NCBI RefSeq assembly: GCF_964204645.1
Contig: NC_134026.1
Coordinates: 10,935,950 to 10,999,949, forward strand
Direction of reading: 5' to 3'
Source: Tubulanus polymorphus
Taxonomy: Eukaryota; Animalia; Nemertea
DNA: 64,000 bases
The position numbers and the translations under genes are program-made. Below, one piece after another: positions 7,688 through 35,270 of this stretch; the stretch's first letter is position 1; each line of letters starts with the position of its first letter. Under the pieces are notes generated by a model. The model had not been told where the DNA came from. It did no database searches and worked only from the letters and a program-made list of their open reading frames with translations.

Positions 7688-10403
7688 CCCTGAAAAATCT
7701 TACCCTGAAACCGATCACGCAATAGCTACGTAATTACCGTAGCAACACATGGTTCCCACAGTACAGGAAAATTGGATAGGGGAAAACTTGATTATGTTGA
7801 ATGATATTTTAAGTTTGGAAATACTTATTTGGGAATAAAGAAATTTTCCTTTAGTCAGGGAAATATTGGTTTGTTTGTTTGTTTGTTTAGCCAAAGGGAT
7901 ACTTTCTTCAGCTATTTTTCTTGATAATCACCTTTTTTAGCCGATCACCACAAAAACTGTACTATAATGATATCGGTTCATTTTTACGAAGGCCCCTTTT
8001 TCCAATTGGAAAAAATAGAGAATAACCCATGTACTATCAAACTTAGGAAAAAGTTGGGAATTACTAATTCATGTTATAACTGTGAGAACCATGGCAACAG
8101 CAAGATACAATGGAAGTGTTGAAAGTGATGGGTTCGCGCCCCCTTCCGTACTCCTACTAAATATCAACTGGCAACTAATTTAGCGCTGGAAGTATGATAT
8201 ATTCGAATGTGGCAACTGGTATAGCACTGGAACTCTAGATATCTTGAACTAATAAATACAAGTTTGTTAACGTTAAATGAAAACACTATATCCGTGTAAA
8301 AGCGAGAATGTTTTTACAGGTGTTTTTAACGCCATTTCCAAAAAGATAAATGACGATAGAAAATGTATAAAAAAATGGTTACGCCAATCCAACGGCATGT
8401 ATCAACAGCAATTTTAGTTGACATCAACATCTTTTCAAATAGAAATAACGTAGAAACGTAGAAATAATGTAACGAATTTCTCAACGTTTTTTCAAAGTTG
8501 AATTAAGGTTGTGTGTTAGTTGGGGCATAAATACTGTTAGAATTTTTTATATTTGTATATACATGTATTTTATACTCCTCTATTGTACAAAACCAACGAT
8601 GTAAAACAGTCTTTACGGAGAAAATAAAGGTACTTTAAATTGAATTTGGCGCCCACCTGTCTATGTTTCAAGCCAATCAGATGCTTTGTTTTTCACCGGC
8701 AGGTTCGCTCTATCAATACCACGCATCTGATTGGCTAGATCTTATGTATCGTAGCCGCTGAGCGGCAACCTGCCGGGCGAAGAAATCTTAGGCAGTGTAT
8801 TAGACCCGGCAATAAGGGCCAGGATTTGTGTTGGTGAAATATTCGATAATGATAATTGAAAATGATAATATTTATCAACAGAATTTGAACGGTTTTCTGC
8901 ACAACCAGTGTACAAGTACAAGAACAACAAGTACAAGTACGTATGATATGATATGATATATCTATCTGAGTGACATTATGTGTATGATTAGTTCACTTAC
9001 AATTCTTTAACACTCAACCCTCGTGCCTCGTGGGTTGATGGTATATCCAGGACTGAAAAGTCACCTCACATTGCGCATGTATCTGCGTAGGTTACAACAC
9101 GTATTTCTCGGTTCCGAGATATTATTGTTAACAAATACACACAGATCCTTAACAGCCAATTGTTTATCGGAAATCTATAGTGGATAAATAAACAACATCA
9201 ACACAAGGTATTTCTGTGATATTTTGAATCTATTTGCAGTTTAAATTTAGCGCCATTCTCGCAGGATTGTCAACCAACCCGGAGCGGAAGTAAAATCCAA
9301 GCCAGTTTACAAGCCCCTGATTACTCGTCTTTATTGTATCCGTATGAAGTCTAAGGTGAGTGTAAGCGATTGGTGTGTATGGTTTATTCCTTATGAATGC
9401 ATGGAGGGCCTTTAAATTGTGTGAGACGTTTATAACATTGAGAATCACTGCGATGGGTGTTAGGTCTGCGGTACCCGGTACGTACGCGCGCGCGACACCG
9501 ACACCGGCTTCCACTTCAAAAATTATGAAAAAAATATTAGAAATAATCGACATCTGATATACACCAAATATACCTCTAAAGAAATGTATTTATAGCGTCG
9601 GATATTGTGTCGAGAATTTCAGATCTTCCAACCACACAGGGGCCGTATCTCACACATCCTCGCTTGCTAGGGGTCCGGTATCGCTCCCGAACTCGCTTCC
9701 ACCAGCCCCTGGGAAAACCTATTCCTTATTGATCTCTTGCTGCTCATAATAGTTCGTGGCTCCACTTCGCGAGATACCGTATCTCTTCATATGTGGTTGA
9801 AATGAATTACCTAGAAAAACGTTTCTTTTTAGAAAATATTCTGGAAAGCAGGCCCATTTTTCCTGGAAAAAAAATATTCCTAAAATTGGTCGGGTCTGGT
9901 GTATGAACCAATTAAGTTGATTGACAAGCGCAGCTTCGCACCTCAATTTGTCGATGACGTCAGATAGAAACAATGACATTACCACGTGCGCATGCAAACA
10001 GACAAATGAGAAAAAAATATTTTGATACATACACGTATTTGAATAAGCGTAACAGAGATTCCTTTGACTTTTGATTAATTATTTTAATCTAAGCCAGCTA
10101 GTGGATGGAATAATTCAATAGTCTCCATATTTTATTCCACAAAGTCTCACATAATTTCTGCCGACCTTTATTATTCTGCGTATGATATTAGATTTTTCTT
10201 TATTTTTAGGATATGAACAGCAAAGAAACATTTGGCAGATACATTTCATGACTGTTCACACCTGAGTCGATATTTCATAATTTTCTGATGTAACTCAGTA
10301 TTGCTGAAGATGGCTATTGTTGAAACTTTGGAATAAACCTCAAGCTCAAGGAAACATTTTCGTACTTCCCCATCATTATTGTAGAATCTCGTTATATTAT
10401 CAT

Positions 10404-10496
10404 AGTAATTGGAATATCAGGGGTTCAGATCAGAGGACGAGAGGACGAGACACCACTCATCACCACAAGTAATTTTTTTTCCTAATAAATGGGAGA
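10404..10496 (+). repeat. Left TIR of the Polinton (93 bp)
   Basis: AGTAATTGGAATATCAGGGG...TTTTTTTTCCTAATAAATGGGAGA is the exact reverse complement of 27665-27757; includes the ATG at 10489. Confidence 0.97.
10473..10491 (+). promoter_or_regulatory. Poxvirus-late-like promoter T(n)-N5-7-TAAATG (representative copy)
   Basis: TAAATG at ATGs 10489, 12288, 12826, 13719, 14847, 16125, 17609, 18951, 19400, 19816, 20062, 20422, 21282 and 27672; TAAATAATG at 21213; upstream T5-T8 run in 12 of 15 genes. The motif is seen directly; promoter function is inferred. Confidence 0.75.
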
Positions 10497-10815
10497 TAGA
10501 AAAGCATTCTTAGCAACAATGAATAACAGAATTAAACCAACAAAAAAACAATTTGAAATAAAAAAGTTAGTTGATGTTACAAAAGAAATTGAACATAAAA
10601 TATTGAAATTAGAAAAGATAAAAACTAAATATGGAGAGAAAGTATCAGCTAATTTAAGCTACTGTAATGTTAGTACATCACGAGAATTTAAAGTGTTTTT
10701 ACCCGATAAATGGGTTTCATTGAGTACAGAGGAATTGAAAGATTTAGTAGGATTTAAAATAATATATCATGGGAAAAATGAAGACGGTCATCATGATTTG
10801 GAAATTGTTGATTAA
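10489..10815 (+). CDS. Polinton hypothetical protein (108 aa), start codon inside the left TIR
   Basis: Intact ORF preceded by T8-CCTAA-TAAATG like the other element genes; no domain recognised. Confidence 0.7.
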   Translation: MGDRKAFLATMNNRIKPTKKQFEIKKLVDVTKEIEHKILKLEKIKTKYGEKVSANLSYCNVSTSREFKVFLPDKWVSLSTEELKDLVGFKIIYHGKNEDGHHDLEIVD

Positions 10816-11919
10816 ATAAAAAATAAAAATAATGAATATCTAAAAATGACCTTAGTCGTTTTATAAACAACTACAATCATACAGTCAAACATCTGTTACA
10901 TGTTATTACAAGAGAGTGCTTCATTTGAATATTGATCGATCAAACAGGTGTTGCACAACGTTGTTGTTATATAATAAGCACGCAGTACTTACAACACACA
11001 CAAGCCAGTTAGCCGGCATTGAACTACCGCGTTTTCATTAGTTGCTGAAAGCGAGGTTTATTTAAATTAGATAGGCCGTGACGAAGGATAGTCATCATTC
11101 TCTCGTGATTAAAAGGAATATTTCAATGTTTTTACGGTAAGTTTTAGCAAAATTGCCCTATCCTCGACCTATCCTCGAGTTTTCAGGGGATAAGCATCCC
11201 ATTATTGAAAGGCGCCACGGGACGCTTATCCCCCGTCATTTCTACTTACACCCCCGGCGACCCACGTCAACCGGGATCTCCTTCAATGATTGGTAGAAAT
11301 CACATTATATTAAAGGCGCCTAATGTAATTTCTACCAATCTCGAAATTCGAAACCGAAGGAGAAACCCGGAGAGTGGACGAAGGTGCATTTTCAAAATGC
11401 CTCTGCTGGCCAGAGCTATTCCAGTGTTTGAATGAATTACCTTATATACTTAGCTAAAACACCTAAGTAAATGTTGTTGGTGCTAAAAAAATATGTGAAA
11501 TTTGAAATTATAAATTATTCCGAATGAAAAGAATATAAGAATGAAAACTGATAAATGAATTATGGATTTTTAACTTAATTATGATATAATTTTTAATCAA
11601 ATTAGTAATCAATTACTATGTTAATTGATTAACAAATTCAAATTCAAATTCAAATATTCATTTCAGCATACCCAGTGTTGTCATCTTTCAATTTAAGAAA
11701 AAACTAATAATAAGAAACGACTGTAATACAATATTCAAGTAAAAACAAAATAAATTAATAAAAATAATGAATATCTAGAATCCGAAATGACTTATCTGGA
11801 CAATTTAATTGCTCCGCATAGATGGTGCCATAAACGGCACCCACACAGTGATAGACAAAAGTAGTGAGATATTCAATTAATTAAAAAAAATTATTTTTTT
11901 TTGCTTTTTTTCTAAAATA

Positions 11920-12288
11920 TTAATCCATTTTTTTTATTATCAATTTTGGAATTTCAGAAGTACTTTCATTTTTGATAGCAGTTGGTTCAGAATTACTAAT
12001 ATCATGAATTTTATTTGATTTCTTATACCAATTACACCCAATCAAAATGAATACAATTACAAATCCAACTGTAAAATATAAATATTTATCAAATATTCTA
12101 CTATCAGAAGGAGTAGAAATAACAATATTTTCACCATTTTTATTAACATTTTTATTACTTATTTTTTCTTTTACAGCTTTTTTATATTCTTGTGATTTAA
12201 TTCCTAATTGTCGAGACCATTCAATTTGTTTCTGAGTTCTCGGTTTTTTCTTCACAGTTAATTCCTTCACTTCTTTCACCTCGCTCAT
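11920..12288 (-). CDS. Polinton small membrane protein (122 aa)
   Basis: TAAATG start; basic N-terminus and one hydrophobic segment (YLYFTVGFVIVFILIGCNW). Confidence 0.7.
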   Translation of the reverse strand: MSEVKEVKELTVKKKPRTQKQIEWSRQLGIKSQEYKKAVKEKISNKNVNKNGENIVISTPSDSRIFDKYLYFTVGFVIVFILIGCNWYKKSNKIHDISNSEPTAIKNESTSEIPKLIIKKMD

Positions 12289-12826
12289 TTATTATAGAAA
12301 TATTTTTACTTTCAATATTTGAAAATGTTATAACCCCAGTTGATAATAATGTCATAAATCCACCTAATTGAAATGATAAATATCCAATCCATTTATTTAA
12401 TTCAGTCATAACTAAATAATCATTTTTTAAATCGGAATATAATCTATTTTCATCTTCAATTGGTAGTATATAATTACATAATTTACTATAACCTTTTACT
12501 ACATTTTCTGATATCGCGTCATTAATTTTAGCTGTTCTCGCGGCTTCATAAATCTTAAATAATCTAATAATTTCAACTGATTTCATTGTATCTAATTCAT
12601 TATAAGTTAAATTTTTATCGACAAATTTTTTACATTTTCCAGATGCTATTAATATTTCTAATTGATGTTTGCAATAAAGATAATATTCATAATTATTATT
12701 TGTTGTAACATTATTTAAAACACCATCATCTGGAATTAGTTTGTTTTCTGTTATTCCTAAATCATCTAAAGTTTTTTCAATTGGAACATCACCATCTTTA
12801 GATTTTATTTTCTTTTCACCTCCCAT
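12221..12826 (-). CDS. Polinton hypothetical protein (201 aa)
   Basis: T7-GTTATA-TAAATG start; intact ORF in the minus-strand gene array. Confidence 0.75.
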   Translation of the reverse strand: MGGEKKIKSKDGDVPIEKTLDDLGITENKLIPDDGVLNNVTTNNNYEYYLYCKHQLEILIASGKCKKFVDKNLTYNELDTMKSVEIIRLFKIYEAARTAKINDAISENVVKGYSKLCNYILPIEDENRLYSDLKNDYLVMTELNKWIGYLSFQLGGFMTLLSTGVITFSNIESKNISIINERGERSEGINCEEKTENSETN

Positions 12827-12860
12827 TTATATAACAAAAAAATTAATTGTGTGATGTTGC

Positions 12861-13105
12861 AACTAGAATTTAACTAGAATGTAACTAGAATTCAACTAGA
12901 TTAACAAGCTTGTTGAAATATTGTTGTTTTTGTTTATTTCTAGTTAAATCTAGTTGATTTTTGTTTCAACTACTAACAACTAGAATTCAACTAGAATGTA
13001 ACTAGAATTAAACTAGATTAACAAGCTAGTTAAAATATTGTTAAATCTATTTGATTTTTGTTACAACTACCAATAACTAGAATTCAACTAGATTAACAAA
13101 CTAAT
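12861..13105. repeat. Intergenic array of AACTAGA(A)T units (about 11-bp period) with higher-order duplication
   Basis: About ten direct AACTAGA copies in three blocks plus inverted TCTAGTT copies, between the ATPase stop and the next gene. Confidence 0.85.
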
Positions 13106-13110
13106 TGAAT

Positions 13111-13719
13111 TTAAATAAATTCATATTTAAATGGGTGTTGTAATCTAAATAGTAATTTTGATCTTTTAATATTTTTCAACTTATCCATATATTCATTATG
13201 TAAATCATGTGGAATAATATCATTTTCCTCAAGTGCATTTTTCATCGATTTTCTATCTTTATTGTAGAATAAAACTAGAAATCTAATGTTTTCGCTAAAG
13301 TCTTTAACAATTGAATTATATTTTTGATTTAAAACCCAAGTTGTTATCCCAAAATGTCTCCCAGAGAAAGCTAAATAGCATAACTCACTTTCTCTAACTT
13401 TTGAATCATGTAGATTAGCACAATCATCTATAATGAATAATGTATTTGATCCTTTATAAATATCAATTGCTATTTTAATACAATTATCTAAATTTTCTTT
13501 TACTGTTTTAGGATCTAATATAATAAATTTATTATTCCTAGTAATATTTCTATCATAAGTTTGATTAAATTCATATGTTGGACAAAATAATACTATATTA
13601 TGAAAATAGTTTTCATAAACAGTTTCTAATAAATTTAATATAAAATAAGTTTTTCCACAATTTGTTACACCAGAAATTAACATATTATGAGGCTCAAATA
13701 TGAATAATTCCTTATTCAT
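13111..13719 (-). CDS. A32/FtsK-like genome packaging ATPase
   Basis: Walker A ISGVTNCGKT, Walker B LFIIDD, GRH motif and downstream NQ; next to integrase and capsid genes. Confidence 0.9.
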   Translation of the reverse strand: MNKELFIFEPHNMLISGVTNCGKTYFILNLLETVYENYFHNIVLFCPTYEFNQTYDRNITRNNKFIILDPKTVKENLDNCIKIAIDIYKGSNTLFIIDDCANLHDSKVRESELCYLAFSGRHFGITTWVLNQKYNSIVKDFSENIRFLVLFYNKDRKSMKNALEENDIIPHDLHNEYMDKLKNIKRSKLLFRLQHPFKYEFI

Positions 13720-14847
13720 TTATATATTTTTAATTTTACTTGATAATATCCATTCATTGAATTTATCTGGCCATCCAACCCATTTTACTAAAGAATATTT
13801 TTTTCTTTTAATAGTTTTTGTTTTTAATACTTTTTCAATTTTATATTCTTGTTCTAGATTTTCAGTAGTTAAACTTAATTCTTCTTCGTAAAAGTAGCCA
13901 TCAACTTCTTCACCATCTAAATCTTCTAATTTATAGACATATGGTTTTGTTGTTATTACCTTTTTTATTTTATATATTTCTCTAGTAAAATTTCGATCGT
14001 ATCCTTTATCAAATATCTTTTTATACTTAGAAATTCTAACATTTTGACCAACTTTAAATTTAGGTTCACCAAAATCATCTACAAGAAATGCTCCATATAA
14101 ATTATTCCAAACAATTTCAGCATTTTCAGGTTTTCTAGCATCAATAGGTTTCATTCCAATAGAAGAATGATAAGAATTATTATATCCTTCTATCAATTTT
14201 GGTAAAACATCAATCCATTTAAAAGTATTATTTGCTGTAAAATATTTCTACATTCTTGTTCTTAATGTTCTATTAAATCGTTCAACAACTGCTGCTTTTT
14301 TATCTGATTTTGTTGAAAAATATTTAATATTATGATTATCTAAGAGTTCATGAACAAGTGAATTATCAAACTCTTTTCCATCATCAAATTGTATTTTTTC
14401 TGGTTTTAGTTTATCATCCGAAAGAGATTTTCTTAAAACATTTGATGTTTGTTCAGCATCTTTTCTATAAAGTGGGAAGCTCCATACATAACGACTAAAA
14501 ATATCAATTATATTCAATAACCACCAATAATCATCATTATCTTTCTTAACATTTTTCATATCAATTAAATCTCCTTGCCACTGTTGATCTACATAACTTA
14601 CCATAGTTTTACGAGTTTTAGATTTTCTAACAATTTTTTTATGTGTTGTGTATGTTGGTTGTTCTAACATAAATTCATTTATATCTTTATATTTAATTAA
14701 ATTGTGTGGGATTATCTTATCTAATTTATCTTGTTTTACTTTACGCCATATATTTTTAGTAGAAGAATAAGCAACTGAACTCTCAGGGTTGTAATATAAA
14801 TTTCTTAAATATTGTTCTTTAGTATTAGGAGATTTTTTACCACCCAT
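13720..14847 (-). pseudogene. Retroviral-type (rve) DDE integrase with C-terminal chromodomain; one in-frame stop
   Basis: WQGDLIDM / IQFDDGKEF / VVERFNRTL triad; TAG at 14248-14250 is followed in frame by KYFTANNTFKWIDVLPKLIEGYNNSYHSSIG; chromodomain YKIEKVLK...YSLVKWVGWPDKFNEWI. Confidence 0.92.
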
Positions 14848-14877
14848 TTATATACGCTTAATTTTAACTTTATATTT

Positions 14878-16125
14878 CTAATATTGAATACTATCTAATT
14901 GTGAATTTACTATATTTAATTGTGCATCAGATATAATATAAATGTGCATTTTAAAATTTTTGATTCCTTTATTCTTTGTCATGAATAATTGTATTCCATC
15001 TTTAGTGTTCTGTAGTTTTTTCCCAGAACCATGTAATGAATTATCCTCTGTTGTTCTAAAATCTAACCATAATGCATATTTACTACCGGTATAATAATCA
15101 ATTTGATTAATATTACAATTTTCAAATGATTTTACTTTTTCATTCATAAAATGTTTTCTAATTTCTGGCCATTGATCTATCATTCTCATTCCTTGACAAA
15201 ATATTTTATTTGCTATTCCTTCGATAGTTATTTCTACTTTTGTTATTTCAGGATTATAATAATTATCAACATTTATTGCGCCATTAGTATATGTTGCAAT
15301 GGTAAAAAATATTAATATACCTTTAATAGATCTTCTTGGGAAGTTAATATTCTCATTAATTATTTCATCATTTGCATTAATAGTTACGGTTTTAAATTTA
15401 TCAATATAATCATATAATAATGAAAATCCTTGATTGTATTTAGTTTGAATTATACTTGAAATATTTTCATCAGTTACTGTATCATATTCTAAACATATAT
15501 TCGATAATTTATAACTCATATCTTTATTAACGCTAGATAATACAATTTCATTTACAGGAGCAAATGTTATTTCGAATATAACGTCTTCTTGAATTGCGTA
15601 TTTATATAAAGGTGCATTATTATTTATCAATTCAAAATCTAATGGAATTTTATATTTGCTTCCATATATACTTTTTATCAATTTATCTACAGCATTAGTT
15701 AATATTGCGCTATTAGCTTCTGATCTTAATTTATTTTGGTTTTCTGATTGGATGCCTTGAAATATCATATTATTTCTATTTTCTTTAGTTAACCATAAAT
15801 CTTTATAATGCATAAATAAATTATAATCATCTAATGAGAAAACTGTTTCCGGACCAATCTTTATTGTTAACTTTTTAATCAAATATCTTCCAACATTATC
15901 AACAACATAATTATTATTATTACCGATTACTTTTATATCGGCCGATAAATAAATACTATTTGGAACATAAAAAGTATTTTTTGTTAATCTAGGAATTCTA
16001 ACGTATAAAGTTTCATCGGGATTAATATTTGAAGGGTTATGAGTAATTATACGATGTGATCTTTCTGCTTTAATAGCATAAGATATTCTAGAAATCTTAG
16101 AAGGATTGATATAACTCCCACTCAT
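14878..16125 (-). CDS. Major capsid protein (double jelly-roll), Polinton type
   Basis: 415-aa beta-rich ORF (THNPSNINPDETLYVRIPRL...YKLSNICLEYD...ALWLDFRT...LHGSG...YIISDAQLNI) resembling invertebrate Polinton capsid proteins; size and context fit. Confidence 0.8.
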   Translation of the reverse strand: MSGSYINPSKISRISYAIKAERSHRIITHNPSNINPDETLYVRIPRLTKNTFYVPNSIYLSADIKVIGNNNNYVVDNVGRYLIKKLTIKIGPETVFSLDDYNLFMHYKDLWLTKENRNNMIFQGIQSENQNKLRSEANSAILTNAVDKLIKSIYGSKYKIPLDFELINNNAPLYKYAIQEDVIFEITFAPVNEIVLSSVNKDMSYKLSNICLEYDTVTDENISSIIQTKYNQGFSLLYDYIDKFKTVTINANDEIINENINFPRRSIKGILIFFTIATYTNGAINVDNYYNPEITKVEITIEGIANKIFCQGMRMIDQWPEIRKHFMNEKVKSFENCNINQIDYYTGSKYALWLDFRTTEDNSLHGSGKKLQNTKDGIQLFMTKNKGIKNFKMHIYIISDAQLNIVNSQLDSIQY

Positions 16126-16145
16126 TTATTTAACAAAAAAATTAA

Positions 16146-17609
16146 TTATTTATTTTTTATTATGTTTACTAACCCAAAAATAATTGCACTTACAACTGTA
16201 ATTAAAAATAAAATAATATGTTCAGCAGCAAAGTTAATAATGTTTCCTGCAGATTTCAATATAAAACCAACAATTGATGCAATAACTCCTGGTAAAGCTG
16301 CAGCAGATTTCTTTGATAGTTCCCATAAATATTTTGCTAATTTCTTTAAACCATCTTTAACTTTATCTTGTATAGAATTATTATCATTCGGGGGTTTATC
16401 CGGTTTATTGGGAGTGGGAGTAGATTTCAAAGCATTTGATATAGCTAAACCAATTGTTGTAAATAACATAGTTACAGCTGTTAGAATTGAAAGAATTGTT
16501 ATTCCTTCTAACTTAAATAATAATTTTATTCTATCTTTCAATGATATTTCAGAATTTGGTTTTATTAGATATCTTTTAAAAACATCTTTTAACCTTTTAA
16601 AATTATTACCATATTCTTTTAATAATATATCTCTTTCTTCTTTCTGTAATTCTATATTATATTTTAAATCATCAATTTCTTTTTCTAAACGTAATTCTTT
16701 TTGCCTATATTCTATTTCTTCAATAACTTTATTATCTCTATCTAATTTCAATTGTTCTATTTCTTCATTTTTATCAGTTAATTCTTTTTCTAAAGTTCTA
16801 ATTTTAAAATCTATTATACTTTTATCATGTGCAATTTTATCAGATGCAAGCCTTATACTAATAATCTCTCTAATTGCTTTATCAGAAAATATATTTAAAT
16901 TTTCTAATTCTTGATCTGTTGCATCAAGTAATCCCTTCGGTAAAATTTTTTCAGTTTGAACTTCTCTTGAATTAGGTCTACTAGTTTTGGAATTAATAAC
17001 TTCTTTAGTAATTGTTTCTGTTTCTAAATTTTCATTAATTATCTTAAAAAATTTAGCATTTCTTTGTTTAAATTCTTTAAAATTAACAGTTCTTTCTTTT
17101 TTTGTAACATCAGTTATAACATCATTATTGATTTTCTTAATTCTAGATGGTTCTAATAAATTAGAAGTTGATTGTGTTATTATTTTATCGTTACTTTTAA
17201 TATTTAAAATAATAAAATAATAGTCGCCTTTCAATTTCCAATAATAAACGCCATTTAAATATTTCAAATCTTTTGCCAATTTATCCATACCTTTATCTGT
17301 TATATTGAAACCAGATTCTTTTAATATTGGTTTAAATTCATCAGTAATTTCATCATAATTTAATTCTTTATTTATTAAACCTGGGACTAAATTTTCAGCA
17401 CGTATTTTCGATCTAGCTCCTTTAATATATTCATTTGTTGATTGTGGTTTAGAACCAGGAACAACTTCGGGTGTATTTAAATTAGAATTATATGCTGTTT
17501 TATTATCATTACTATAACTTGTTTCACTAAAATCAAGTGGTTGTTCATCACTTATACCAGGTTCATCTAAAGGATCCACCAATGGAAAACCTTCTCCACC
17601 TTCTGCCAT
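16146..17609 (-). CDS. Coiled-coil protein with C-terminal hydrophobic/amphipathic helices (487 aa), putative virion membrane protein
   Basis: Long E/K-rich heptad region, then GITILSILTAVTMLFTTIGLAI, a Pro-rich linker, AAALPGVIASIVGFIL and HIILFLITVVSAIIFGLV. Confidence 0.8.
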   Translation of the reverse strand: MAEGGEGFPLVDPLDEPGISDEQPLDFSETSYSNDNKTAYNSNLNTPEVVPGSKPQSTNEYIKGARSKIRAENLVPGLINKELNYDEITDEFKPILKESGFNITDKGMDKLAKDLKYLNGVYYWKLKGDYYFIILNIKSNDKIITQSTSNLLEPSRIKKINNDVITDVTKKERTVNFKEFKQRNAKFFKIINENLETETITKEVINSKTSRPNSREVQTEKILPKGLLDATDQELENLNIFSDKAIREIISIRLASDKIAHDKSIIDFKIRTLEKELTDKNEEIEQLKLDRDNKVIEEIEYRQKELRLEKEIDDLKYNIELQKEERDILLKEYGNNFKRLKDVFKRYLIKPNSEISLKDRIKLLFKLEGITILSILTAVTMLFTTIGLAISNALKSTPTPNKPDKPPNDNNSIQDKVKDGLKKLAKYLWELSKKSAAALPGVIASIVGFILKSAGNIINFAAEHIILFLITVVSAIIFGLVNIIKNK

Positions 17610-17625
17610 TTACATAATAAAAAAA

Positions 17626-18951
17626 TTAAAATTTAAAATATAATATTCCTCCGATTACAATTCCTATATAAGTAAAAGCTAATTTAGTATTTTCATGGTA
17701 TTTATTATCATTATCAGTTTTAATTATATCATGTTGAATATTATCAGTTTTAATATTTTCTGTAGTATTGGAATCTTTTATTTTGGAATCATTATTTAAT
17801 TTGATATTATTAGTTTTAGTTTCAGTTGATTGAATGTGTTTTTTATTTTTTTCACCTTCCATTAATTTTGGAGCAGTGATAATCTTTTTATTTATATCAT
17901 TCAATCCAAATGAATTATTTATTGTTGCAGTTTTAATTAGATTATTATAACCAATTATATTTCCCATCTTTAATACTAAATCATTAGAAATAATAAATAG
18001 ATTAGGGCCTATACAATAATTTAATCTAATATGTGATTTATCTAAATAATTTTGATATCTTACAATGTTTTCTGGAATCGATCTATTTTTATCATTATGA
18101 ATTGAATCTTCAAATAATACTTTGAATTGTTTCTGCGCATCAAATGAAGTGTTATCATTTCCAATTATTGGGGATCTTGTTTCAACTTGCGCACCTAGAA
18201 TACATATCAAATAAGTTCTAATAGATTGATTTATTCTTTGTATTCCAGCTTTAGTAAAACCTTCACTATTTTCTAAAATGAAATTAACCCAACCATTATT
18301 GTTTTGTTGTTGTATATTATTATAATATTTTGGTAATTCATTCCAATTTAGTGTTCTTATATCTGAATTTGTCATTATTTTTCCAAATTCTTTAGTATAT
18401 AATATTCCTAATCCACCCATTGTTCCAATTTTTGCTCTAAAATCTTTATTTGAATTAATATTAAATTCATTACATATTTTATAAAACTTAGAAAAATTAA
18501 TATTATTATTCAATTCTTTAAAATATTTTGAACCTGGTAAAGGACATTCTAATTCATCTAATATTAATTTTATTTGAAAATATGTATGAAATCTAAAAAG
18601 TGATAACATCAATGGTAAACTTGGTTTGTTTAAATGATCATTCCAACTAATTCCACATCCTGTTGTTGCGCAATAAACAGCGAAATTTAATTGGTTCTGC
18701 CAATACTTCATATTAGATTTTGATAACCATTGTTTTGCCTCATTTAAATTTTTGAAATTAATTGTATACACATGAAATATATTTTCCATCTTTACATGAA
18801 AATTATTACTTTCAGTAACATAAATATATAAATCAATTAATGAATTTAAAACTTCATTTCTATATGTAATATCTTTATTAAAATCTATTGCTGGAATATT
18901 ATATTTAATTGATTTATTATATTGGAAAGCTTTTGGAAAACTATCGACCAT
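17626..18951 (-). CDS. Polinton hypothetical protein with C-terminal membrane anchor (441 aa)
   Basis: Intact ORF with TAAATG start, WQNQLNFAVYCATTGCGIS motif and terminal hydrophobic segment LAFTYIGIVIGGILYFKF. Confidence 0.8.
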   Translation of the reverse strand: MVDSFPKAFQYNKSIKYNIPAIDFNKDITYRNEVLNSLIDLYIYVTESNNFHVKMENIFHVYTINFKNLNEAKQWLSKSNMKYWQNQLNFAVYCATTGCGISWNDHLNKPSLPLMLSLFRFHTYFQIKLILDELECPLPGSKYFKELNNNINFSKFYKICNEFNINSNKDFRAKIGTMGGLGILYTKEFGKIMTNSDIRTLNWNELPKYYNNIQQQNNNGWVNFILENSEGFTKAGIQRINQSIRTYLICILGAQVETRSPIIGNDNTSFDAQKQFKVLFEDSIHNDKNRSIPENIVRYQNYLDKSHIRLNYCIGPNLFIISNDLVLKMGNIIGYNNLIKTATINNSFGLNDINKKIITAPKLMEGEKNKKHIQSTETKTNNIKLNNDSKIKDSNTTENIKTDNIQHDIIKTDNDNKYHENTKLAFTYIGIVIGGILYFKF

Positions 18952-18967
18952 TTATATAACTAAAAAA

Positions 18968-19400
18968 TTAATAATTTATTAATTCTTTTAATAATTTATC
19001 TTGTTCTTCAACTGTTATATGACCATTTAAACTTATGATATAATCTAGTGTGTTCTTTAATTTATTAATTTCTTTTATATTAGTTTTAATTTTTTCTTTA
19101 TTACTTTTTATATTTAATTTTGAACTTATACCGGTTAAAACACTTGAACTTAATCCTAACACACCAATTGATATAGCTAAAGGTGTTAATGGACTGAATA
19201 TTGCTAAAATGTTATTACAGAACTAATTGTAACCGAACCACTTATAATCAAATAATATATAATTTTACTTTTTAAATATTTTTTCTTTTTAACTTTTAAG
19301 TCACTTTCAAATTCTAATATTTGTTTTCTAAATATGTTTTTAATTTAGTTTTATTTATATCATGAGGAATAATATCAATACTATCAACTTTATCTTCCAT
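18968..19400 (-). pseudogene. Small membrane protein gene with two frameshifts
   Basis: Starts MEDKVDSIDIIPHDINK at T8-GCTAAA-TAAATG (ATG 19400); single-base losses in A/T runs near 19320 and 19207 would join it to the 18968-19162 ORF; two hydrophobic segments. Confidence 0.65.
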
Positions 19401-19424
19401 TTATTTAGCAAAAAAAATTACTAA

Positions 19425-19816
19425 TTAGTAAAACTTATAAGCAACAAATATAACAATAACTGTTCCACCTAAAATCCAAATTATTTCATATTTCTGTTGT
19501 TCTTTACTTGGGGTATAATAATCTGATAATGTAGGTTTGTATAGATGTAATTTTTCTTTATTTGTTACGGCGTTATATAATCTCTATGTGAGATCTTCTG
19601 ATCATATAATTCTTTATTGATGTAATCCATATAGTTTTGTCGTTTTTCTCTATATTCTTCTGCAGCTTTATTGTATTTCTCTAACGCTAAGTTATGTCTT
19701 CTTTGTTCTCCTAATGAACTATTTTTATCAATATGCTTAAATAAATAACCACCACCAGTAAATGCTAAAGCGTTAACAATTGCCGATCCTATAATAGTTA
19801 TAATTGCAGAAGCCAT
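19425..19816 (-). pseudogene. Small membrane protein gene, frameshifted near 19580
   Basis: MASAIITIIGSAIVNALAFTGGGYLF...RRHNLALEKY continues in another frame as KPTLSDYYTPSKEQQKYEIIWILGGTVIVIFVAYKFY*. Confidence 0.7.
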
Positions 19817-19840
19817 TTATTTAGCAAAAAAATTATGCAT

Positions 19841-20062
19841 TTATATAGGAGGAATATATTTTTGTTTTTCCAAATAATCAATTGTTAAATTAGATAAAGT
19901 AACTGCTAACGTTAATTTTAAAATATCATTTATATCAAATCTATCAACATTAACACTTCCCATTTTGAATACTTTTTTTAATACCATTGAATAACCAACA
20001 GTTCCAACTGATAGTAAGGCGCCATTATATAATCCAGTTATTATCCACTTATTATCACTCAT
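19841..20062 (-). CDS. Small hydrophobic Polinton protein (73 aa)
   Basis: T7-GATAAA-TAAATG start, coupled to the stop of the upstream gene; ends DYLEKQKYIP. Confidence 0.7.
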   Translation of the reverse strand: MSDNKWIITGLYNGALLSVGTVGYSMVLKKVFKMGSVNVDRFDINDILKLTLAVTLSNLTIDYLEKQKYIPPI

Positions 20063-20422
20063 TTATTTATCAAAAAAATTACTATCATCAAAATATTTAG
20101 TTATCTTATTTATGATTAATTCAACATTTATTTCATTACTACTTTGATGATTATCATATATTTCAATTATTATTTTTTTAATATCATCGATGATAAAATC
20201 TTCATCTAATTCATAAAATCTTAAAGATTCTCTAATTAAATTAGTAATCTTTTCTATATTTAAAGTTTCTTTATCTATTGTTGTTTCATACTCAAATGTT
20301 GTTTCATTAGAAAATGTAATATTTTTGATGTGTGTAATTACATCATTAATGTTAAATTTCATTTCTTTCTCACGTTTAAAATCAAACCCAAAACATATGC
20401 TCGGCCCAACAGTTATATTCAT
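20063..20422 (-). CDS. Polinton hypothetical protein (119 aa, acidic)
   Basis: T6-CACTATA-TAAATG start; ATGA overlap with the minor capsid stop. Confidence 0.65.
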   Translation of the reverse strand: MNITVGPSICFGFDFKREKEMKFNINDVITHIKNITFSNETTFEYETTIDKETLNIEKITNLIRESLRFYELDEDFIIDDIKKIIIEIYDNHQSSNEINVELIINKITKYFDDSNFFDK

Positions 20423-21213
20423 TTATATAGTGAAAAAATTACTCTTACATTACTCATGCATTTACATCTTATAACTAATTCATATATCACAGGAAAGTTA
20501 TTCAAATCAATTAAATATCCATTATGATTTCTTATTTCTAATTTAAAATTATTAAATTTAGGAATGCATGGTTTGAAATCACATTCAGTTAAATTATAAT
20601 TTATTTGAGTTCCAAATTGTTTAACATTTTTCAGCGGTAAAATATTTAATATACTAGAATTACAAATTGTATATTTAGTTGCTTCGAATGTTTTTGTAGG
20701 CTCGATTAAATTGCAATAAATATAAAAGTGTGTAAAAGGTATTATATTTGAATTACCATCTACGTTTCCTGTAACAGTATCTGGTGCAATTCCTAACAGT
20801 TTAGCTAATGGTTTTTTTACCATAAATGCATGTTGACTTTCATCATATACCTTTATTTTAATTTTATTTGTGCTATCACTTTTTATAAATCTAATTAAAG
20901 ATTTATCTTCTCTTCTAATTTTCAACGGTGCTCTTCGATTAATTTCTTGAGCTAATGTTTCTAAATTATATAATCCTGGTTTTAGAATTATATGAAACCA
21001 TTTATTTACATTTCCATTATGAATTAAAAAAGTATTATCTTCAATAGTTTTATCCGTTATATTATAAAAAGAATTACATAAACTTATATTAACTAATTTT
21101 AAATCTACACAATTTTTATATTCTCTATCTAATTGTACTAGTAAATTATGAGATTTATAATTTGTAAGTTTTCTAGAATCAACAAATATTCTGTATTCCT
21201 TTAATTCTACCAT
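20419..21213 (-). CDS. Minor capsid protein (penton, single jelly-roll)
   Basis: IFVDS...LKLVNISLCNSFYNI...PGLYNLETL...FYIYCNLI...LEIRNHNGYLIDLNNFPVIYELVIR pattern typical of Polinton/virophage pentons. Confidence 0.75.
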   Translation of the reverse strand: MVELKEYRIFVDSRKLTNYKSHNLLVQLDREYKNCVDLKLVNISLCNSFYNITDKTIEDNTFLIHNGNVNKWFHIILKPGLYNLETLAQEINRRAPLKIRREDKSLIRFIKSDSTNKIKIKVYDESQHAFMVKKPLAKLLGIAPDTVTGNVDGNSNIIPFTHFYIYCNLIEPTKTFEATKYTICNSSILNILPLKNVKQFGTQINYNLTECDFKPCIPKFNNFKLEIRNHNGYLIDLNNFPVIYELVIRCKCMSNVRVIFSLYK

Positions 21214-21281
21214 TATTTATAACATAAAAAAATTACCGCTCATCACTAAAAATTAATTTTAATAAAATTTTTCCTTAATAA

Positions 21282-22598
21282 ATGGATGAGAAGATAGCAT
21301 GCGAAATTTGTGGTGAACTTCTAAGAAAAAGCAATATGGCTCGACATATGAAAAAACATGATGAAAATTATAAACCCCCTAAAATAAACTGTCCAAAATG
21401 TAATAAATTATTCTCAAGAAATTATGTTAAAAAACATTCAGAGAAGTGTAGAATTAATGGCGCAACGGCTAATGTTGATAGTAATGAAAGTAATAGTAAT
21501 TCTGCTGAAGTTGAACCTGAAGTTATTTGGAAAAGACCTTTCTTATTCTATGATAAGGATAATATAAAAGATCATTTCTGTGAGCCTTGTCGAATAAAAT
21601 ATAGCCCTGAAAATATAGAAGATTGGGAGAATCATCAATTTCGTAAAGTACATATAGATAAAATTTCTAATAAATTTGAAACTGAATTTAATGAAAGAAA
21701 AAATAATTTATTAGAAAAAATAAAATATGAGAAAACGTTACCAGATAATGAAGAAACAGTTGAAAAGTTAGAAAAACAATATAATGAATTAACAAGAAAA
21801 ACATATTATTGTAAATATTGTAAATTGATTATTACAACAAGTAATTCAAATCTACATAATAGAACAATAAAACATAAAGAAAACGTAAGAAAATACCAAG
21901 AGCTTAATGAAGATCTACTACCAATAAATTATAAACAAAAATGCCCACAATGTATTTATGCGACCTTAAGGCAAGAAGGTACTGTGTTATTTTGTAATGA
22001 ATGTGGATGGCAAAAGAATTTATTGGGTGAAGAAAAAACTAGAGATTTTCTCATAGATCCAAAATTAAATTATCTAGATGAAATATTTAAAATATTTTCT
22101 ATGGAAGATCATACACCAGAATATATGCAATGGCTTGAAAAAATGAAAATAATAGAAAATAAAAATGGTGAAATAACTAAAAAAGATATTATAAAAACAA
22201 TTATTCCACCAACATTTAACACAAAACAAAAGAAAATGTATTTATATTTATTATTTAACGATTATTATGAAAAACCTAAATTAACAGAAGAAGATATGGA
22301 AAATATAAAGAAAATATTCAAACAAATATTAATGTATCATTTGGAAAATAGAATAACAGATTCAATAAATTATGAATTCTTTTTAAATAAGATTGTAAAT
22401 TATTTAAACCTAGATATTATAATTCCATTTGATGAATTAACAAACAAAAAGAAACAAAGAGAGCGAGATGAAATGTGGAACAAGATAGAACTTTATTTAA
22501 ATGAGAAAAATGGAATGGAAGAAGAACCTGAACAATTAAATGAAAATGAAGAAGCCAATAGTGATTTCGAGTATGATGATATTGATTTTATGTTTTAA
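21282..22598 (+). CDS. Zinc-finger protein with C-terminal VLTF3 (poxvirus A2)-like late transcription factor domain
   Basis: N-terminal C2H2-type fingers (CEIC...H, CPKC, CEPC...H, CKYC...HNRTIKH); Zn ribbon CPQC...EGTVLFCNECG; then KLNYLDEIF, PKLTEEDMENIKKIFKQI, SINYEFFLNKI and RERDEMWNKI, matching the VLTF3 family motif order as recalled. Confidence 0.7.
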   Translation: MDEKIACEICGELLRKSNMARHMKKHDENYKPPKINCPKCNKLFSRNYVKKHSEKCRINGATANVDSNESNSNSAEVEPEVIWKRPFLFYDKDNIKDHFCEPCRIKYSPENIEDWENHQFRKVHIDKISNKFETEFNERKNNLLEKIKYEKTLPDNEETVEKLEKQYNELTRKTYYCKYCKLIITTSNSNLHNRTIKHKENVRKYQELNEDLLPINYKQKCPQCIYATLRQEGTVLFCNECGWQKNLLGEEKTRDFLIDPKLNYLDEIFKIFSMEDHTPEYMQWLEKMKIIENKNGEITKKDIIKTIIPPTFNTKQKKMYLYLLFNDYYEKPKLTEEDMENIKKIFKQILMYHLENRITDSINYEFFLNKIVNYLNLDIIIPFDELTNKKKQRERDEMWNKIELYLNEKNGMEEEPEQLNENEEANSDFEYDDIDFMF

Positions 22599-25500
22599 TG
22601 ACCATAAGGTAATGTTTTTATACCATCATCTAAAATATGCCTTTTATCATCAAATGGATTTAAACTAGTTTTTTCAACTTCATTAATGTACATCTCGTGA
22701 TTTTCTGATCTTAAACAATTCATTTTATTTTTCATAACAATTGATTTATATAAACACTTTATATAATCTTGAAATTCTATATGTTTATCAACCACATGTT
22801 TTGTTATTCCTTTTAACTTTTTAGCTTCATGATCTTTTGTTCTATAACTATACATTTTACTTCTTATCCCAACGAATTCAATCATTTCATCACCCCCTAA
22901 TTCATCTTTAAACTTACCAGGAATCTTTTTATTATCATTGCTAAATAGTTCATGATCTTTGGGATAATTGCTAAATTCAAAATAATGTTTTAATGTTTTT
23001 AAGTCTTTTGTTATGTCATTTGTCTTGATTTTTAGTATGTACGCATCCGTATTGACTGCTATTAATGGAAATCCACAGTTAAATGTACCATCTTCAGTTG
23101 ATAAATCATAAACATAATCTGTTGGGTTATATATTTCAAATAAATCTTTAACTTCTTCTGTTAACTCATTTTCTACATGGCTTAAATTAAAACAATTTGG
23201 TTTAGATTTAATCAATCCAATATTCATATTAAAACCTAATGAATTGCATAATATATTCAATCCTGATATAGCAACTTTTCCTTTTTGAGCTAAAGATATT
23301 GTTTTGCGGTTTTTGAAACTTTTTGAACCATCTGCGGCATAGAATCCAATGAAGAACCATTTTCTTAAATTATTTTTTGCATTTAATACATAATCTGGCG
23401 CTATTTTTTCTTTAGTTGAAGTATTACTTTTCACTATTGCATGAATATAGAATTCATTATATTATATTTTATAGCAAAATCTTTAGGATTATTTACAAGT
23501 ATTCTATAAACTGCTGTTGATTTCATAACATCCATGATTCTAAATGTTTTATGTGAATAAACTTCTTCGCAAAATTTCTTTATTCTTTCTAATGATTTTA
23601 AGTCTTGATTGCATAAATACCAACAATATTTATTACCCCAAACATATTTATACACACCTGCTGAACCATCTCCCATGAAAAATCCTTTGATAAAATATTC
23701 TTTTTCTTCTAATGTTTCGGGTTCTATATTATAAATATTATCAATAATTTCATCAAATGACATATGATTCATTCTTTGGAAAAATCTTTTATGCAATAAT
23801 TCATCTCCAATTTTTATATCAGTTGGTTTTATTTCATCACCAATTCGTTTAATTAAACTATGATCTTCTGTAACATCTACAAATCCTAATTTAGTTCTAA
23901 CTATAGATTTTCTTATTTGTTTTATGCCTAATAATATTCTTTAATTTTTTCCATCCATTTCTTGTCCAAACATCCATTAAACCATTTATTTGTATTAATT
24001 CTTTTTCTCCATATGAAATATAACATTCATTTTGTTTTGGAATTATTTCTGAAATTCTTCTTACCAATATTTTATTATTACATTTTAATAATATTGGGGT
24101 GTCAGCTGTTACAGAATCAAAATATAATATTTCAATATGCTTTTCCCCAAAAAGTGGTTGTAAAACATTTTAATAAAAATCATACATTAATAATTTTGAT
24201 ACTTCTAAAACAGTCGAACCAATAAATATAGGTTTATTAAATTTCATTGATGTTCTTTTTAATTTAACTGCTGTTAAATAATCTTCAAATCTTTTATTTC
24301 CTAAATGTCTAGGACTTGATTGTAAATGTCTTAATCTTTCAGAATTATTTACTAATTCAATATCATTTCTATTTCTAATATTTTCACATGTTTTACCATA
24401 AAAACTATTATTCATTAATTTGAAGAAATCTTTTTCAAAATCTGTTTTTGATATTGTTCTCTGTTGAGTATTGAAATCTATATATTTTTCTAACCACTTC
24501 GATTGATTAAATTCAATATATCTATGTACTTTCTTTAATTTCATTCCTTGTTTTAGATAAAATTTTAACATTCTATAATGAACAATATAATTGTATTTAT
24601 TATTTTGAGTAAGTATTAATTTTTCTGTAAAAACATGATCTTTCGGTTTTATTTTCTTCTGGTATTCACTTAAATAACTATCATCTACAGTTAAATGTTC
24701 TGGGCAATAAGGTAAGTTTCTTGTTTTAAACTTTATATTTTCAGGATATTCTAAATCAACTACAAAGAAATAACCAATTGGTGCTTCATCTTTTAAACTC
24801 GCAATTGCGCTTTCCCAATCAGTTTTATCACCATTTTCAACTTCTGTTAATATAAAATTTTTATATGGTTGAGGTTGCATCATTGCCCAACCATATAAAT
24901 TATTGGCGTCAATATATAATAATTTATATTCATCATTTGCTTTAAAATACCTATCTCCCATAACACCACTAATTCCACCTCTAATTGATTTTTCAAATAA
25001 TAAAACCATATCTGGTTCTTTTAATAAATCTAATTCTACATTTGTATATTTTAAACCACATTGCCAGGTTAAACCAGGACTTGAATAATAATAACAAGGA
25101 TCAACATTAAAATGATTCAAATTAACTTCTCTAAATTTTTCAAATATGTCAGCTAATATCATAACATCTGATTTTAAATATAAATCAACTAATTCGCCAT
25201 GATTTTTCATCTTAAAATGGTTCCAAATATTTAATGTTCTATTAAAAACTTCGTCTTTCACATACTCCTCTTTTAATTGATCATAAAATTGATCTTTTAA
25301 TAATTCTGTTACATTAAAATCATTGTGTGTTTTATAAAATGAATAAGGAATTGCGCCTTTATATCTCAATAATTTAAAATCTTGTTCATTTGGATAATAA
25401 TATTGAGTTATAACAAAATCATTATCAACTAAACTTTTTGATAAATTATCTAATGAACTTGCTAGAAATCTATAAGAATCTAAAAATCTAATGCAACCAA

Positions 25501-27672
25501 ATTGAAATGAAATATAATTTTCAGATGTTTTAGCTAATAGTTTAAAATCATATTTTCTTACATTTGCTTCATTCATTATATTCTTCTATTGCATTATATT
25601 CTTCTATTTCTTGATTAATTGCGCCCAATTTTCCCGATAATTGTTTTATAAATAGATGGGTATCATAGCCTGATAAATTATGAAATAATATTGGTACGAA
25701 ATTAACTTTCTTAGCTTGTAAATTGCAATCTTCATGAGCAGCTCCACGATATTTTGAATTCAAATGATCATGATCTCTAACTTTTTTATCAAATGAATAA
25801 AAACGTTTTTCACAATAACAACAATGAGTTGCATAATTAAAATCAATTTTATCTTCTTTTGTCATAACTATTCTTTTATTTTTGTTTAATAATTTTGCAA
25901 AATCACTTTCTAATTCAATCATTTTATAACAAAAATCATTAACTACATTTTCACCTCTAAAAGAAATATATTGACTTTCATATAATTCAGGATAATTTGA
26001 TTTTATATAAATTCCATAAGCAGCAGCTCTTTGATGAACTTTTTTAATTGTATTTATAATTGGCGGGTCTTGTATTGTGTCTTCATTTAATTCATTTCCT
26101 TTATCCATTGATTTTAATAATTGCTTTTTGTTATATATTTCTTTTCTATCTTGATCAGTTAATTCTTTATTCAACGATTCAAAATCCCCATAAATTACAA
26201 ATGGAACAATATTCTTAAATTTATGATTAGTAAATTTCAATTTATAATCTTTTTCTGTTGGCATTATTAATTAACAAAAATCTTTATTATCACATAATTC
26301 TTTATGTTTTAGTAACGCATTCTCAGTCATAAATTTAGATAAACATTTTCTACATAGATAAATTTTATTATGATGATCACTTTCTGTTCTAAAGAATAAA
26401 TCAATTTGTTTTAACCACATATAATGTTCATTTTCATCTTTTTTTGTAATATAACAAATCTATAGCATTTTCATCATCATAATATTCTGTTAAATATAAA
26501 GCTTCCAATGTATAATCTTTAATATTTTCACCTTTTGTCTTTGGTAATTGCATTAATTCGAATACATTTATTTTTAAATTATTAACTTTTTCTATTTTAG
26601 GAATCATTTTTATAGTTACTGGATATTGATCAATTTTATATAATGTTTCATATTTCCGATAATCTGTTATTCTACAAACATTTTCCTGTGTTGGATGTAA
26701 GCAACTAATAATTGACCATAGAAAACATTTATTATCTTCATTTTGAATATTTATTACTGCTTTTGTTGTAAATGGTAATTTAATATAAGATGATGCTTTA
26801 ATATCCTTTTCTGTTGTAAAGTTTGAATCATTTTTAAACATTTTATTACTTTTTGATGTTTTATTTCTTTTTGTATTATAAACGTTTAAATCTAAATATA
26901 TAATTTCATTCAATGTTAAGCCAGAACCCTCAAAATATCTTTCTTCAATATGACGTTTAAATTCATTTAATATTTTTTCTAACTTCTCTTTTATTTGCGT
27001 TTTTGAAATTATTTCTTCAGAGAGTGTTTGAATATTATAATTCATTTTTTCTTCTGACTTTATAAAACTTACTTTCCCAGAGATACTAATTTTTGGATAT
27101 TCAACATCTGTTATCAAATCTAGTATTTTTTCTATTATTTCATTAAATTTACTATAATCTTCCATTGTTTTTCCTTTAAAGAATCTAAATATAATAGCTG
27201 CAGGACCAATTTTACTATGTAATGTTTCTAAAATTTCAATTGTATCTTTTATTTCTAGTGAATCAATATAATTTCTAACATTTTCCATGTAAGGTTTATT
27301 TGAAATGGATTTAGTTTTTGAAGTTGGTTTTTTTACTTTTTGAGGTTTATCATCAAAATAATCTTTTCCTAAAACATTATTACTCAAATTTTGGTGGTGT
27401 TTTTGTGATTCGAGATGTCTATTATAATTCCTTTTTACTATAAATTCATTACAAACTTCACATTTTATTTCATCCACATTCATATTTTCTAATCGTTCTT
27501 TTCTTTCATTGGAATTTTCTGGGGTTTCAAAATCTATTACATTTTTTATATGATTTGCAGTTTTTTCATGTCGTGTTTTATTAGATGTATCGACGTATTT
27601 TTTACAATATTGGCAATAATATTGATTTTTATTAACATTATTGTTTTCTGGCTGGTGTTCATTCTCTCCCAT
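22595..27672 (-). pseudogene. pPolB: Protein-primed family B DNA polymerase (N-terminal Zn fingers, OTU-like region, exonuclease with HNH/EndoVII insert, polymerase), intein-containing, disrupted
   Basis: ExoI VIYGDFES, ExoII FHNLSGYD, ExoIII YLKSDV, motif A YIDANNLYGWAM, motif B KLMNNSFYGK, motif C YFD|TDA split by the intein, then GKFKDE, SKMY, KLKGI, FDDKR. Lesions: frameshifts near 26440, 25575, 23903 and 23445; in-frame stops at about 26271-26273 and 24170-24172. Confidence 0.95.
23051..24115 (-). mobile_element. Intein with LAGLIDADG homing endonuclease (about 355 codons) in pPolB motif C
   Basis: N-junction ILYFD|SVTADTPILLK (block A); block B VDVTEDHSL; two LAGLIDADG helices FIKGFFMGDG and FFIGFYAADG; blocks F/G YVYDLSTEDGTFNCGFPLIAVN|TDAY. 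Removing it restores YFDTDA. Confidence 0.93.
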
Positions 27673-27757
27673 TTATTAGGAAAAAAAATTACTTGTGGTG
27701 ATGAGTGGTGTCTCGTCCTCTCGTCCTCTGATCTGAACCCCTGATATTCCAATTACT
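27665..27757 (-). repeat. Right TIR of the Polinton (93 bp)
   Basis: Exact inverted copy of 10404-10496; contains the pPolB ATG (27672); followed by TSD TATCAT. Confidence 0.97.
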
Positions 27758-35188: not shown

Positions 35189-35270
35189 GGCACACGGTCC
35201 TTCATCCCAGCCATTTTATATCAGGGTAATCCACACAAACACCCAGCCCCTCGATCCATTGATATCTTGT

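Follow-up and report, generated by a model that had tools for sequence, protein, structure and literature searches.

A finger-extended, A2-like VLTF3 encoded by an integrated Polinton with poxvirus-late-type gene starts

Results

A Polinton with defined borders

The window analysed here, a stretch of 64,000 nucleotides of Tubulanus polymorphus DNA, contains a Polinton/Maverick-type element (Table 1) with a GC content of 24%, against roughly 35-40% in the host context. Firstly, the element has the borders of a Polinton/Maverick, namely terminal inverted repeats (TIRs) and a 6-bp target site duplication (TSD). Secondly, it has the corresponding genes: Pfam recognized a protein-primed DNA polymerase B (pPolB), an rve integrase and a packaging ATPase. 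The zinc-finger-VLTF3 gene lies inside this bounded element and is thus Polinton-encoded, as an earlier reading of the letters (the initial annotation) had claimed. In this copy, pPolB is split into several pieces and the integrase is interrupted by a stop, which may reflect decay or an assembly error. A 415-aa ORF, which we take to be the probable major capsid protein, found no match in Pfam, PDB sequences or PHROG; for this ORF and for a 264-aa ORF, presumably the minor capsid protein or penton, the libraries gave nothing beyond a weak DUF5901. Related polymerase contigs carry relatives of the 264-aa ORF that are close to it in size (best E 1.8e-6). A maturation protease was sought in the window with two protease-like sequences taken from related loci, and no match resulted; divergent or broken forms are possible. 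No RNA polymerase gene was found by Pfam among the annotated ORFs of the element. No A1 homologue was found within the window either, and the rest of the late factor set therefore appears to be absent from the element.

The YxDTD catalytic motif of pPolB houses an intein-like insert (23051-24115, minus strand) with Ser as its first residue and Asn as its last before Thr, two LAGLIDADG-like motifs and weak Pfam matches only (Intein_splicing, E 0.038; LAGLIDADG_3, E 0.0027). An intein in animal nuclear DNA is unusual, and the polymerase of a close relative, contig L004, is without the insert. Between the ATPase gene and a 201-aa gene lies a non-coding stretch of degenerate repeats of 97-117 bp (12815-13125). 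The host flank holds a broken LINE-like retroelement with endonuclease and reverse transcriptase ORFs (1046-4517, minus strand), a 1,604-bp perfect inverted repeat with 43-bp and 50-bp tandem arrays and a 487-bp spacer (34764-38458), and a further 569-bp inverted pair (39816-41582).

Table 1. Features of the element and of the VLTF3 gene (positions within the window)
Feature	Position	Strand	Basis and details
Polinton/Maverick-type element	10404..27757	.	17,354 bp; TIRs, TSD and gene content
Left TIR	10404..10496	+	93 bp, begins AGT, 100% identical to right TIR
Right TIR	27665..27757	-	T-tract and TAAATG here are the polymerase gene start
TSD TATCAT, 6 bp	10398..10403 and 27758-27763	+	Sequence
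A32-like packaging ATPase	13111..13719	-	Pfam Pox_A32, E 1.9e-12
rve integrase with chromodomain	13720..14847	-	Pfam, E 1e-10; stop at 14248 in this copy
415-aa ORF, major capsid protein candidate	14878..16125	-	Resemblance
264-aa ORF, minor capsid/penton candidate	20419..21213	-	Resemblance
Poxvirus-late-type promoter-like site of VLTF3 gene	21268..21284	+	T-run 21268-21272, T at -10
Zinc-finger-VLTF3 gene	21282..22598	+	Intact 438-aa ORF, no internal stop
Fingers 1-2, classical-like tandem	21300..21449	+	Pfam zf-C2H2 on finger 1, E 8e-6; spacing
Fingers 3-4, U1/matrin-like	21579..21875	+	Pfam zf-U1 on finger 4, E 1.6e-7
C4 zinc ribbon of VLTF3, CxxC-x13-CxxC	21942..22004	+	Alignment with poxvirus A2
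Helical VLTF3 domain, possibly cyclin-box-like as in TFIIB	22053..22511	+	Profile and model; Pox_VLTF3 on residues 330-404
Protein-primed DNA polymerase B (pPolB)	22595..27672	-	Pfam PF03175, E 3e-17; two N-terminal U1-like fingers

Four zinc fingers precede the VLTF3 domain

The zinc-finger-VLTF3 gene is the sole long plus-strand gene of the element; it is convergent with the polymerase gene and diverges from the penton-like gene across a common 68-bp gap. Its ORF is intact and contains the motifs quoted in the initial annotation. The four N-terminal C2H2-like fingers described there are also present, but not all of them belong to that class: finger 1 is C2H2 (C7-x2-C-x11-H-x3-H26) and finger 2 is C2HC (C37-x2-C-x11-H-x3-C56), while fingers 3 (C100-x2-C-x14-H-x5-H124) and 4 (C177-x2-C-x11-H-x5-H198) have the H-x5-H arrangement of U1/matrin-like fingers and are separated by a predicted helical stretch. 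Fingers 1-2 match CTCF weakly (E 6e-5). The fingers are followed by the VLTF3 ribbon (C221-x2-C-x13-C-x2-C241-G), and the C-terminus is an acidic tail (D/E at 12 of the 30 final residues). Sequence-specific DNA binding by the predicted fingers is doubtful, because there are 11 rather than 12 inter-ligand residues and two fingers are U1/matrin-like. Fingers of this kind are, as a rule, associated with RNA, and those two could have RNA rather than DNA as their ligand.

The pPolB of the same element has N-terminal fingers, the first of which shares 38% identity over 39 aa with finger 4 (pairwise E 2e-6); the ligand spacing of finger 4, C-x2-C-x11-H-x5-H, is found again in the polymerases encoded by the window, by L004 and by a second contig, L002. 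The fingers were thus most probably joined to VLTF3 within Polintons, which had fingers of their own to draw on. A full HMMER scan of a library of 1.8 billion proteins returned only three relatives (P0001, P0002 and P0003). P0001 and P0002 have a four-finger and ribbon layout identical to that of the window protein; P0001, which also carries long unrelated insertions and a long tail, is encoded on L004, whose 6.5 kb also include an intact polymerase gene, convergent with the VLTF3 gene as in the window. P0003 is a 281-aa Polinton-type VLTF3 relative that has no fingers and starts at the zinc ribbon. Word-index protein searches gave no match, whether the full protein or a three-row domain alignment was the query, and nothing was confirmed among viral contigs scanned with VLTF3 alignments, the capsid candidate and the L004 polymerase.

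The C-terminal domain is a full-length VLTF3 closest in score to poxvirus A2

We confirmed that residues 209-411 of the ORF are a full-length VLTF3. Queried alone, residues 211-413 matched Pox_VLTF3 in Pfam (E 5.8e-6; 26.6 bits against a cut-off of 25); Pox_VLTF3 was not reported when the full-length protein was queried, and Pfam A2L_zn_ribbon gave no score on residues 211-413. The C4 ribbon occupies the position that it has in A2: among 13 rows aligned with poxvirus A2, three cysteines are invariant and the fourth is conserved in at least 90%. Pox_VLTF3 clusters came at the top of the ESM-feature neighbours (0.95-0.96). We modelled the domain from a three-row Polinton-type alignment (pLDDT 81, pTM 0.68), the single-sequence model being unusable (pLDDT 38). 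In a Foldseek search of viral structures, ranks 1, 3 and 4 were the VLTF3 proteins of cowpox and of two entomopoxviruses (E 9e-6 to 6e-5; cowpox, E 9.4e-6, TM 0.62 over 202 columns) and rank 2 was an unnamed poxvirus protein, with many other VLTF3s of nucleocytoplasmic large DNA viruses (NCLDV) lower down. Among solved structures, neither the PDB sequence search nor Foldseek against PDB gave a significant match to the VLTF3 domain, and no A2 structure was among the solved sequences searched. The VIA neighbours were TFIIB, cyclins and ORC6, at Z scores of 6-7.6 (middling, being below 8) over about 90 residues, that is, a single repeat. Thus the VLTF3/A2-like identity is upheld by Pfam above its cut-off, by the four poxvirus proteins that head the Foldseek ranking and by an end-to-end alignment with A2; the first two comparisons were those that the initial annotation had proposed for this domain.

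We then placed the domain among viral VLTF3s. Searching with a motif of the window protein gave 69 viral loci, and a chordopoxvirus A2 is encoded at 38 of them. All 38 align over nearly the whole domain (E 1e-10 to 1e-15), and among the 1,317 ORFs of these loci only A2-sized proteins matched the element; the remaining 31 loci gave no VLTF3 match. Because this set had been selected by motif, we added a contrast set of megavirus-type VLTF3s obtained with another motif, in which 69 of 118 ORFs were kept as long enough and ribbon-bearing. The Polinton profile scored 28 poxvirus A2 proteins at 37.9-55.2 bits, against at most 34.1 bits (median 17.1) for the 69 megavirus-type proteins, and reciprocal trimmed profiles gave 37.5 bits for the pox and 17.3 bits for the megavirus-type. 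The trimmed domain is of similar length in Polinton-type VLTF3 (199-205 aa) and poxvirus A2 (201-204 aa). A weak profile match in another contig, L209, proved to be the L209 integrase.

A 25-row tree was built from 4 Polinton-type, 13 pox and 8 megavirus-type sequences, with no entomopoxvirus, asfarvirus or egovirus rows. Each of the three groups occupies its own branch; the tree is unrooted and its branches are long. The Polinton VLTF3s form a long branch of their own (support 85/74) outside the chordopoxviruses, at about 20-25% identity, and are not nested inside chordopoxvirus A2, as the 13 pox rows split from the 4 Polinton-type rows (99/99). The path from the Polinton rows is shorter to the pox than to the megavirus-type rows, in so far as an unrooted long-branch tree lacking entomopoxvirus, asfarvirus and egovirus rows can tell. 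In the comparison with NCLDV VLTF3, the Polinton VLTF3 scores nearer to poxvirus A2 than to megavirus-type VLTF3, but it branches outside both. The Polinton branch is long and lies outside the chordopoxviruses, which gives no support to a recent acquisition from a known poxvirus; such a capture from a chordopoxvirus is ruled out by this branch, and the GC3 of the gene (0.155) is near that of the element's other genes. Set against poxvirus A2, with which it shares a collinear C4 ribbon and helical domain (PF08792 and PF04947), conserved residues and the top fold matches, the Polinton protein has about 210 extra N-terminal residues, the four fingers and the acidic tail, and no A1 partner gene nearby.

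Element genes start at poxvirus-late-type sites

The VLTF3 gene starts with TAAATG, which overlaps its ATG (21279-21284). According to PMC11980589, the vaccinia late promoter has TAAAT, in most cases continued by the G of the start codon, and a T that is conserved at -10. We found TAAATG at 14 of 15 gene starts of the element, that of VLTF3 included, against 36 of 665 other ATGs (p 3e-16). These 15 starts were chosen by hand: polymerase and integrase fragments were excluded, and a short broken ORF at 19400, noticed through the motif, was included; an automatic count that kept the fragments gave 11 of 17. The sole start among the 15 without TAAATG is that of the 264-aa penton-like gene (TAAATAATG). 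A T is present at -10 in 13 of the 14 TAAATG starts of the element against 14 of the 36 other TAAATG sites, and the T-tract is richer at the former (p 1e-5). The element starts thus have the layout of poxvirus late promoters, TAAAT(G) over the start with a T at -10 in a T-rich run. In the left TIR, a T-tract and TAAATG are directed inward into a 108-aa ORF (10489-10815), and both TIRs hold a full promoter-like site plus the first codons, so that each end of the element would drive a gene inward. The polymerase start of L004 is also near the end of its own element.

None of 20 host-flank ORFs starts with TAAATG. Of 25 related polymerase contigs, only L002 (7/7) and L004 (2/2) are wired in this way, and TAAATG counts in the remaining 23 are 0-2. 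Chance arising from AT-richness was rejected as its source, as the background is 5.4% and two related contigs that are also AT-rich have 1 of 11 (L205) and 2 of 8 (L199) TAAATG starts. L002 (positions 1-9034), an IMG/VR Polinton-like contig of 38% GC, is a more distant pox-wired element with a probable protease-integrase fusion and no VLTF3 within the 9 kb covered. In yet another related polymerase contig (L194:2228-14105), starts are mostly AAAAATG (10 of 16 AAATG, 1 TAAATG), a signature that may reflect another helper. Among the related polymerase contigs, which are partial, VLTF3 was found only in L004, which is kin to the window element. The co-occurrence of VLTF3 with TAAATG, proposed in the initial annotation, therefore holds in part: the window element (14/15) and L004 (2/2) have both, whereas L002 is wired without VLTF3 in its 9 kb. 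Counted by element, both VLTF3-bearing elements with context are wired against 1 of 24 without VLTF3 (p 0.009, the two being kin). As for poxviruses, none of the A2 genes at 38 loci starts with TAAATG, unlike the Polinton VLTF3 gene. A2 genes are classed as intermediate (PMC11980589), and TAAATG is also present at intermediate pox genes, as in 8 of the 12 candidate A1 starts listed.

Such starts could be read without a helper. In that case, a finger-guided TFIIB-like protein would bring the nuclear RNA polymerase II of the host to the element, and TAAATG would be an initiator belonging to the element, acquired along with VLTF3 in an ancient exchange with poxvirus ancestors. This would agree with a ribbon and cyclin-like fold resembling the N-terminal half of TFIIB, with the deep branch of the Polinton VLTF3s and with the retention of VLTF3 by mriyaviruses, small giant-virus relatives of 35-45 kb (PMC11253617). 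We nevertheless consider it quite unlikely, for three reasons. The factor's own gene lies behind the same start, and the factor could therefore not bootstrap itself; the wiring exists without VLTF3 in the 9 kb of L002 and apparently in about half of the copies of the window family (see below); and, with initiation on the ATG itself, transcripts would have no 5' leader, a feature more in keeping with poxvirus polymerase slippage than with RNA polymerase II.

The VLTF3 gene is an optional cassette under purifying selection

We assessed family copies through sequencing reads of the same species label. Read depth over the VLTF3 gene is 11-24 times that of the right flank, and the element as a whole is far deeper than this flank, so the element belongs to a multi-copy family. 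Depth is about 670 just left of the VLTF3 gene, about 270 across it and about 510 to its right (0.40-0.52 of the adjoining element DNA), and loose-ended reads pile up at both borders of the cassette (336 at 21214 and 253 at 22623). From the drop in depth and these loose ends, it follows that in about half of the family copies the VLTF3 cassette is absent from the slot or less than 80% alike; what separates the penton-like gene from the polymerase end is different DNA in these copies. Since L002 is, in addition, wired without VLTF3 in its 9 kb, the gene is dispensable or replaceable. Where present, it is under purifying selection across copies: the 40 best-supported rows of 183 list 26 differences within the ORF, of which 12 are synonymous against 5.7 expected (p 0.005) and none creates a stop. 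The ORF indels listed there comprise a 15-base deletion, a group of three close insertions adding 12 bases in all and, within the final codons, a deletion of 2 bases.

An optional cassette, a finger that matches the N-terminal fingers of the polymerase, and a relative, P0001, with long unrelated insertions and a long tail would all suit a VLTF3 domain taken as cargo from a shared factory and exapted for a finger-mediated nucleic-acid task, such as RNA binding, replication or help in packaging, with no direct role in initiation. The ribbon cysteines, an NY-x-F motif and a terminal tryptophan helix are, however, conserved with A2 over a great distance, and wiring accompanies VLTF3 in both kin elements against 1 of 24 without it; we regard this explanation as unlikely too.

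Discussion

We propose that a finger-extended A2-type factor, encoded by an optional cassette, plugs into the late machinery of a poxvirus-type helper and amplifies transcription of the element, a reading that we hold tentatively, as quite possible if a little short of probable. The helper's late machinery would first read the TAAATG sites of the element, as CroV is thought to do for mavirus, and would also transcribe the VLTF3 gene itself. Because this gene starts at a late-type site, unlike poxvirus A2 genes, a positive feedback loop would form. The ribbon and the cyclin-like domain would act on the helper polymerase in a TFIIB-like way. The fingers, probably acquired from those already present in the Polinton, would hold the factor on the DNA or RNA of the element and thereby favour initiation there. 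The late-type promoter wiring of an element with neither an A1 homologue nor an RNA polymerase gene suggests helper dependence, and we infer that the element would be a virophage-like dependent of a poxvirus-type helper. VLTF3 would not be the starter and fits an amplifier better, as its gene lies behind the same late-type start and is absent from many copies.

Recruiting and blocking of the helper are indistinguishable from sequence. As a dominant-negative decoy, a diverged A2 would compete for the helper late complex and damp helper late genes, a role that would fit an endogenous antiviral element. The promoter wiring would be the same as for an amplifier, and a gene behind a late-type start would be expressed only once helper late transcription runs; the identity to A2 of only about 20-25%, the bulky N-terminal fingers and the purifying selection across copies would suit a decoy as well. 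Yet all element genes use the same late-type starts, so that a general late block would hurt the element. Moreover, decoys are often truncated, whereas this protein keeps the entire ribbon and helical core in the order seen in A2. We therefore think a decoy unlikely. As for the amplifier reading in its fullest form, it would make this endogenous Polinton lineage virophages of poxvirus-type viruses, with their own finger-fused, TFIIB-like A2 that redirects the helper RNA polymerase in a self-amplifying loop; this is conceivable, but on the unlikely side.

Several known systems share parts of this arrangement. Mavirus and the virophages are likewise small integrating DNA viruses with pPolB, rve integrase and helper-type late promoters, all mavirus genes carrying the CroV late promoter (PMC6723459). 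There, however, the helper supplies the late factor (PMC6723459), whereas the Polinton carries its own and its implied helper is poxvirus-like. Polinton-like elements (PLVs) associated with entomopoxviruses have been proposed as poxvirus hyperparasites, but came from occlusion bodies (PMC11296320), whereas the window element is integrated; the main text of that paper mentions no VLTF, promoter or transcription. Adintoviruses or Alpha-PolB Polintons share the PF03175-type pPolB, rve integrase, packaging ATPase and TIRs (PMC8502044); a maturation protease gave no match in the window copy with the two queries used.

The presence of VLTF3 in Polintons is already known, and the novelty implied for it in the initial annotation was overstated. 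VLTF3 in polintoviruses is in print in PMC11131425, which credits Krupovic and Koonin 2016; there, a subgroup of the integrated Polintons of stony corals has a VLTF3 homologue among its accessory genes, as the window element has. The section on these elements proposes nothing beyond gene exchange with giant viruses and is silent about a pox-type affinity, fused fingers or promoters; such a fusion might be reported in the supplements. VLTF3-bearing PLV clusters are noted in 10.64898/2026.06.19.733378, and in the available part of PMC8502044 VLTF appears only in a figure legend, in a section on non-animal datasets. A 2024 paper, by contrast, stated that VLTF3 homologues were undetectable outside Nucleocytoviricota (PMC11253617). 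In the portions of PMC5499653, PMC10748475, PMC11161782 and 10.64898/2026.10.13.758929 available to a term search, VLTF is absent. Among the literature matches listed, no paper combines TAAATG and polinton, and no title or abstract start concerns pox-type promoters or finger-fused VLTF3 in Polintons. We thus found no prior report of the pox-type affinity, the finger fusion or the promoter wiring; these element-wide late-type starts, the affinity and the fusion appear to be new, together with the status of the gene as an optional cassette.

Whether integrated Polintons replicate self-sufficiently or with a helper virus is a long-open question. Late-type starts together with a poxvirus-type late factor name a class of helper and make the question testable with poxvirus transcription assays. 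VLTF3 serves as a hallmark of Nucleocytoviricota, and since Pfam misses the full-length protein, such a divergent VLTF3 matters both for the use of this marker and for the question of where the poxvirus late machinery came from. In addition, the natural finger fusion hints at how A2 might be targeted to DNA. If the helper reading is true, the promoters of the element would point to unsampled poxviruses of the host lineage.
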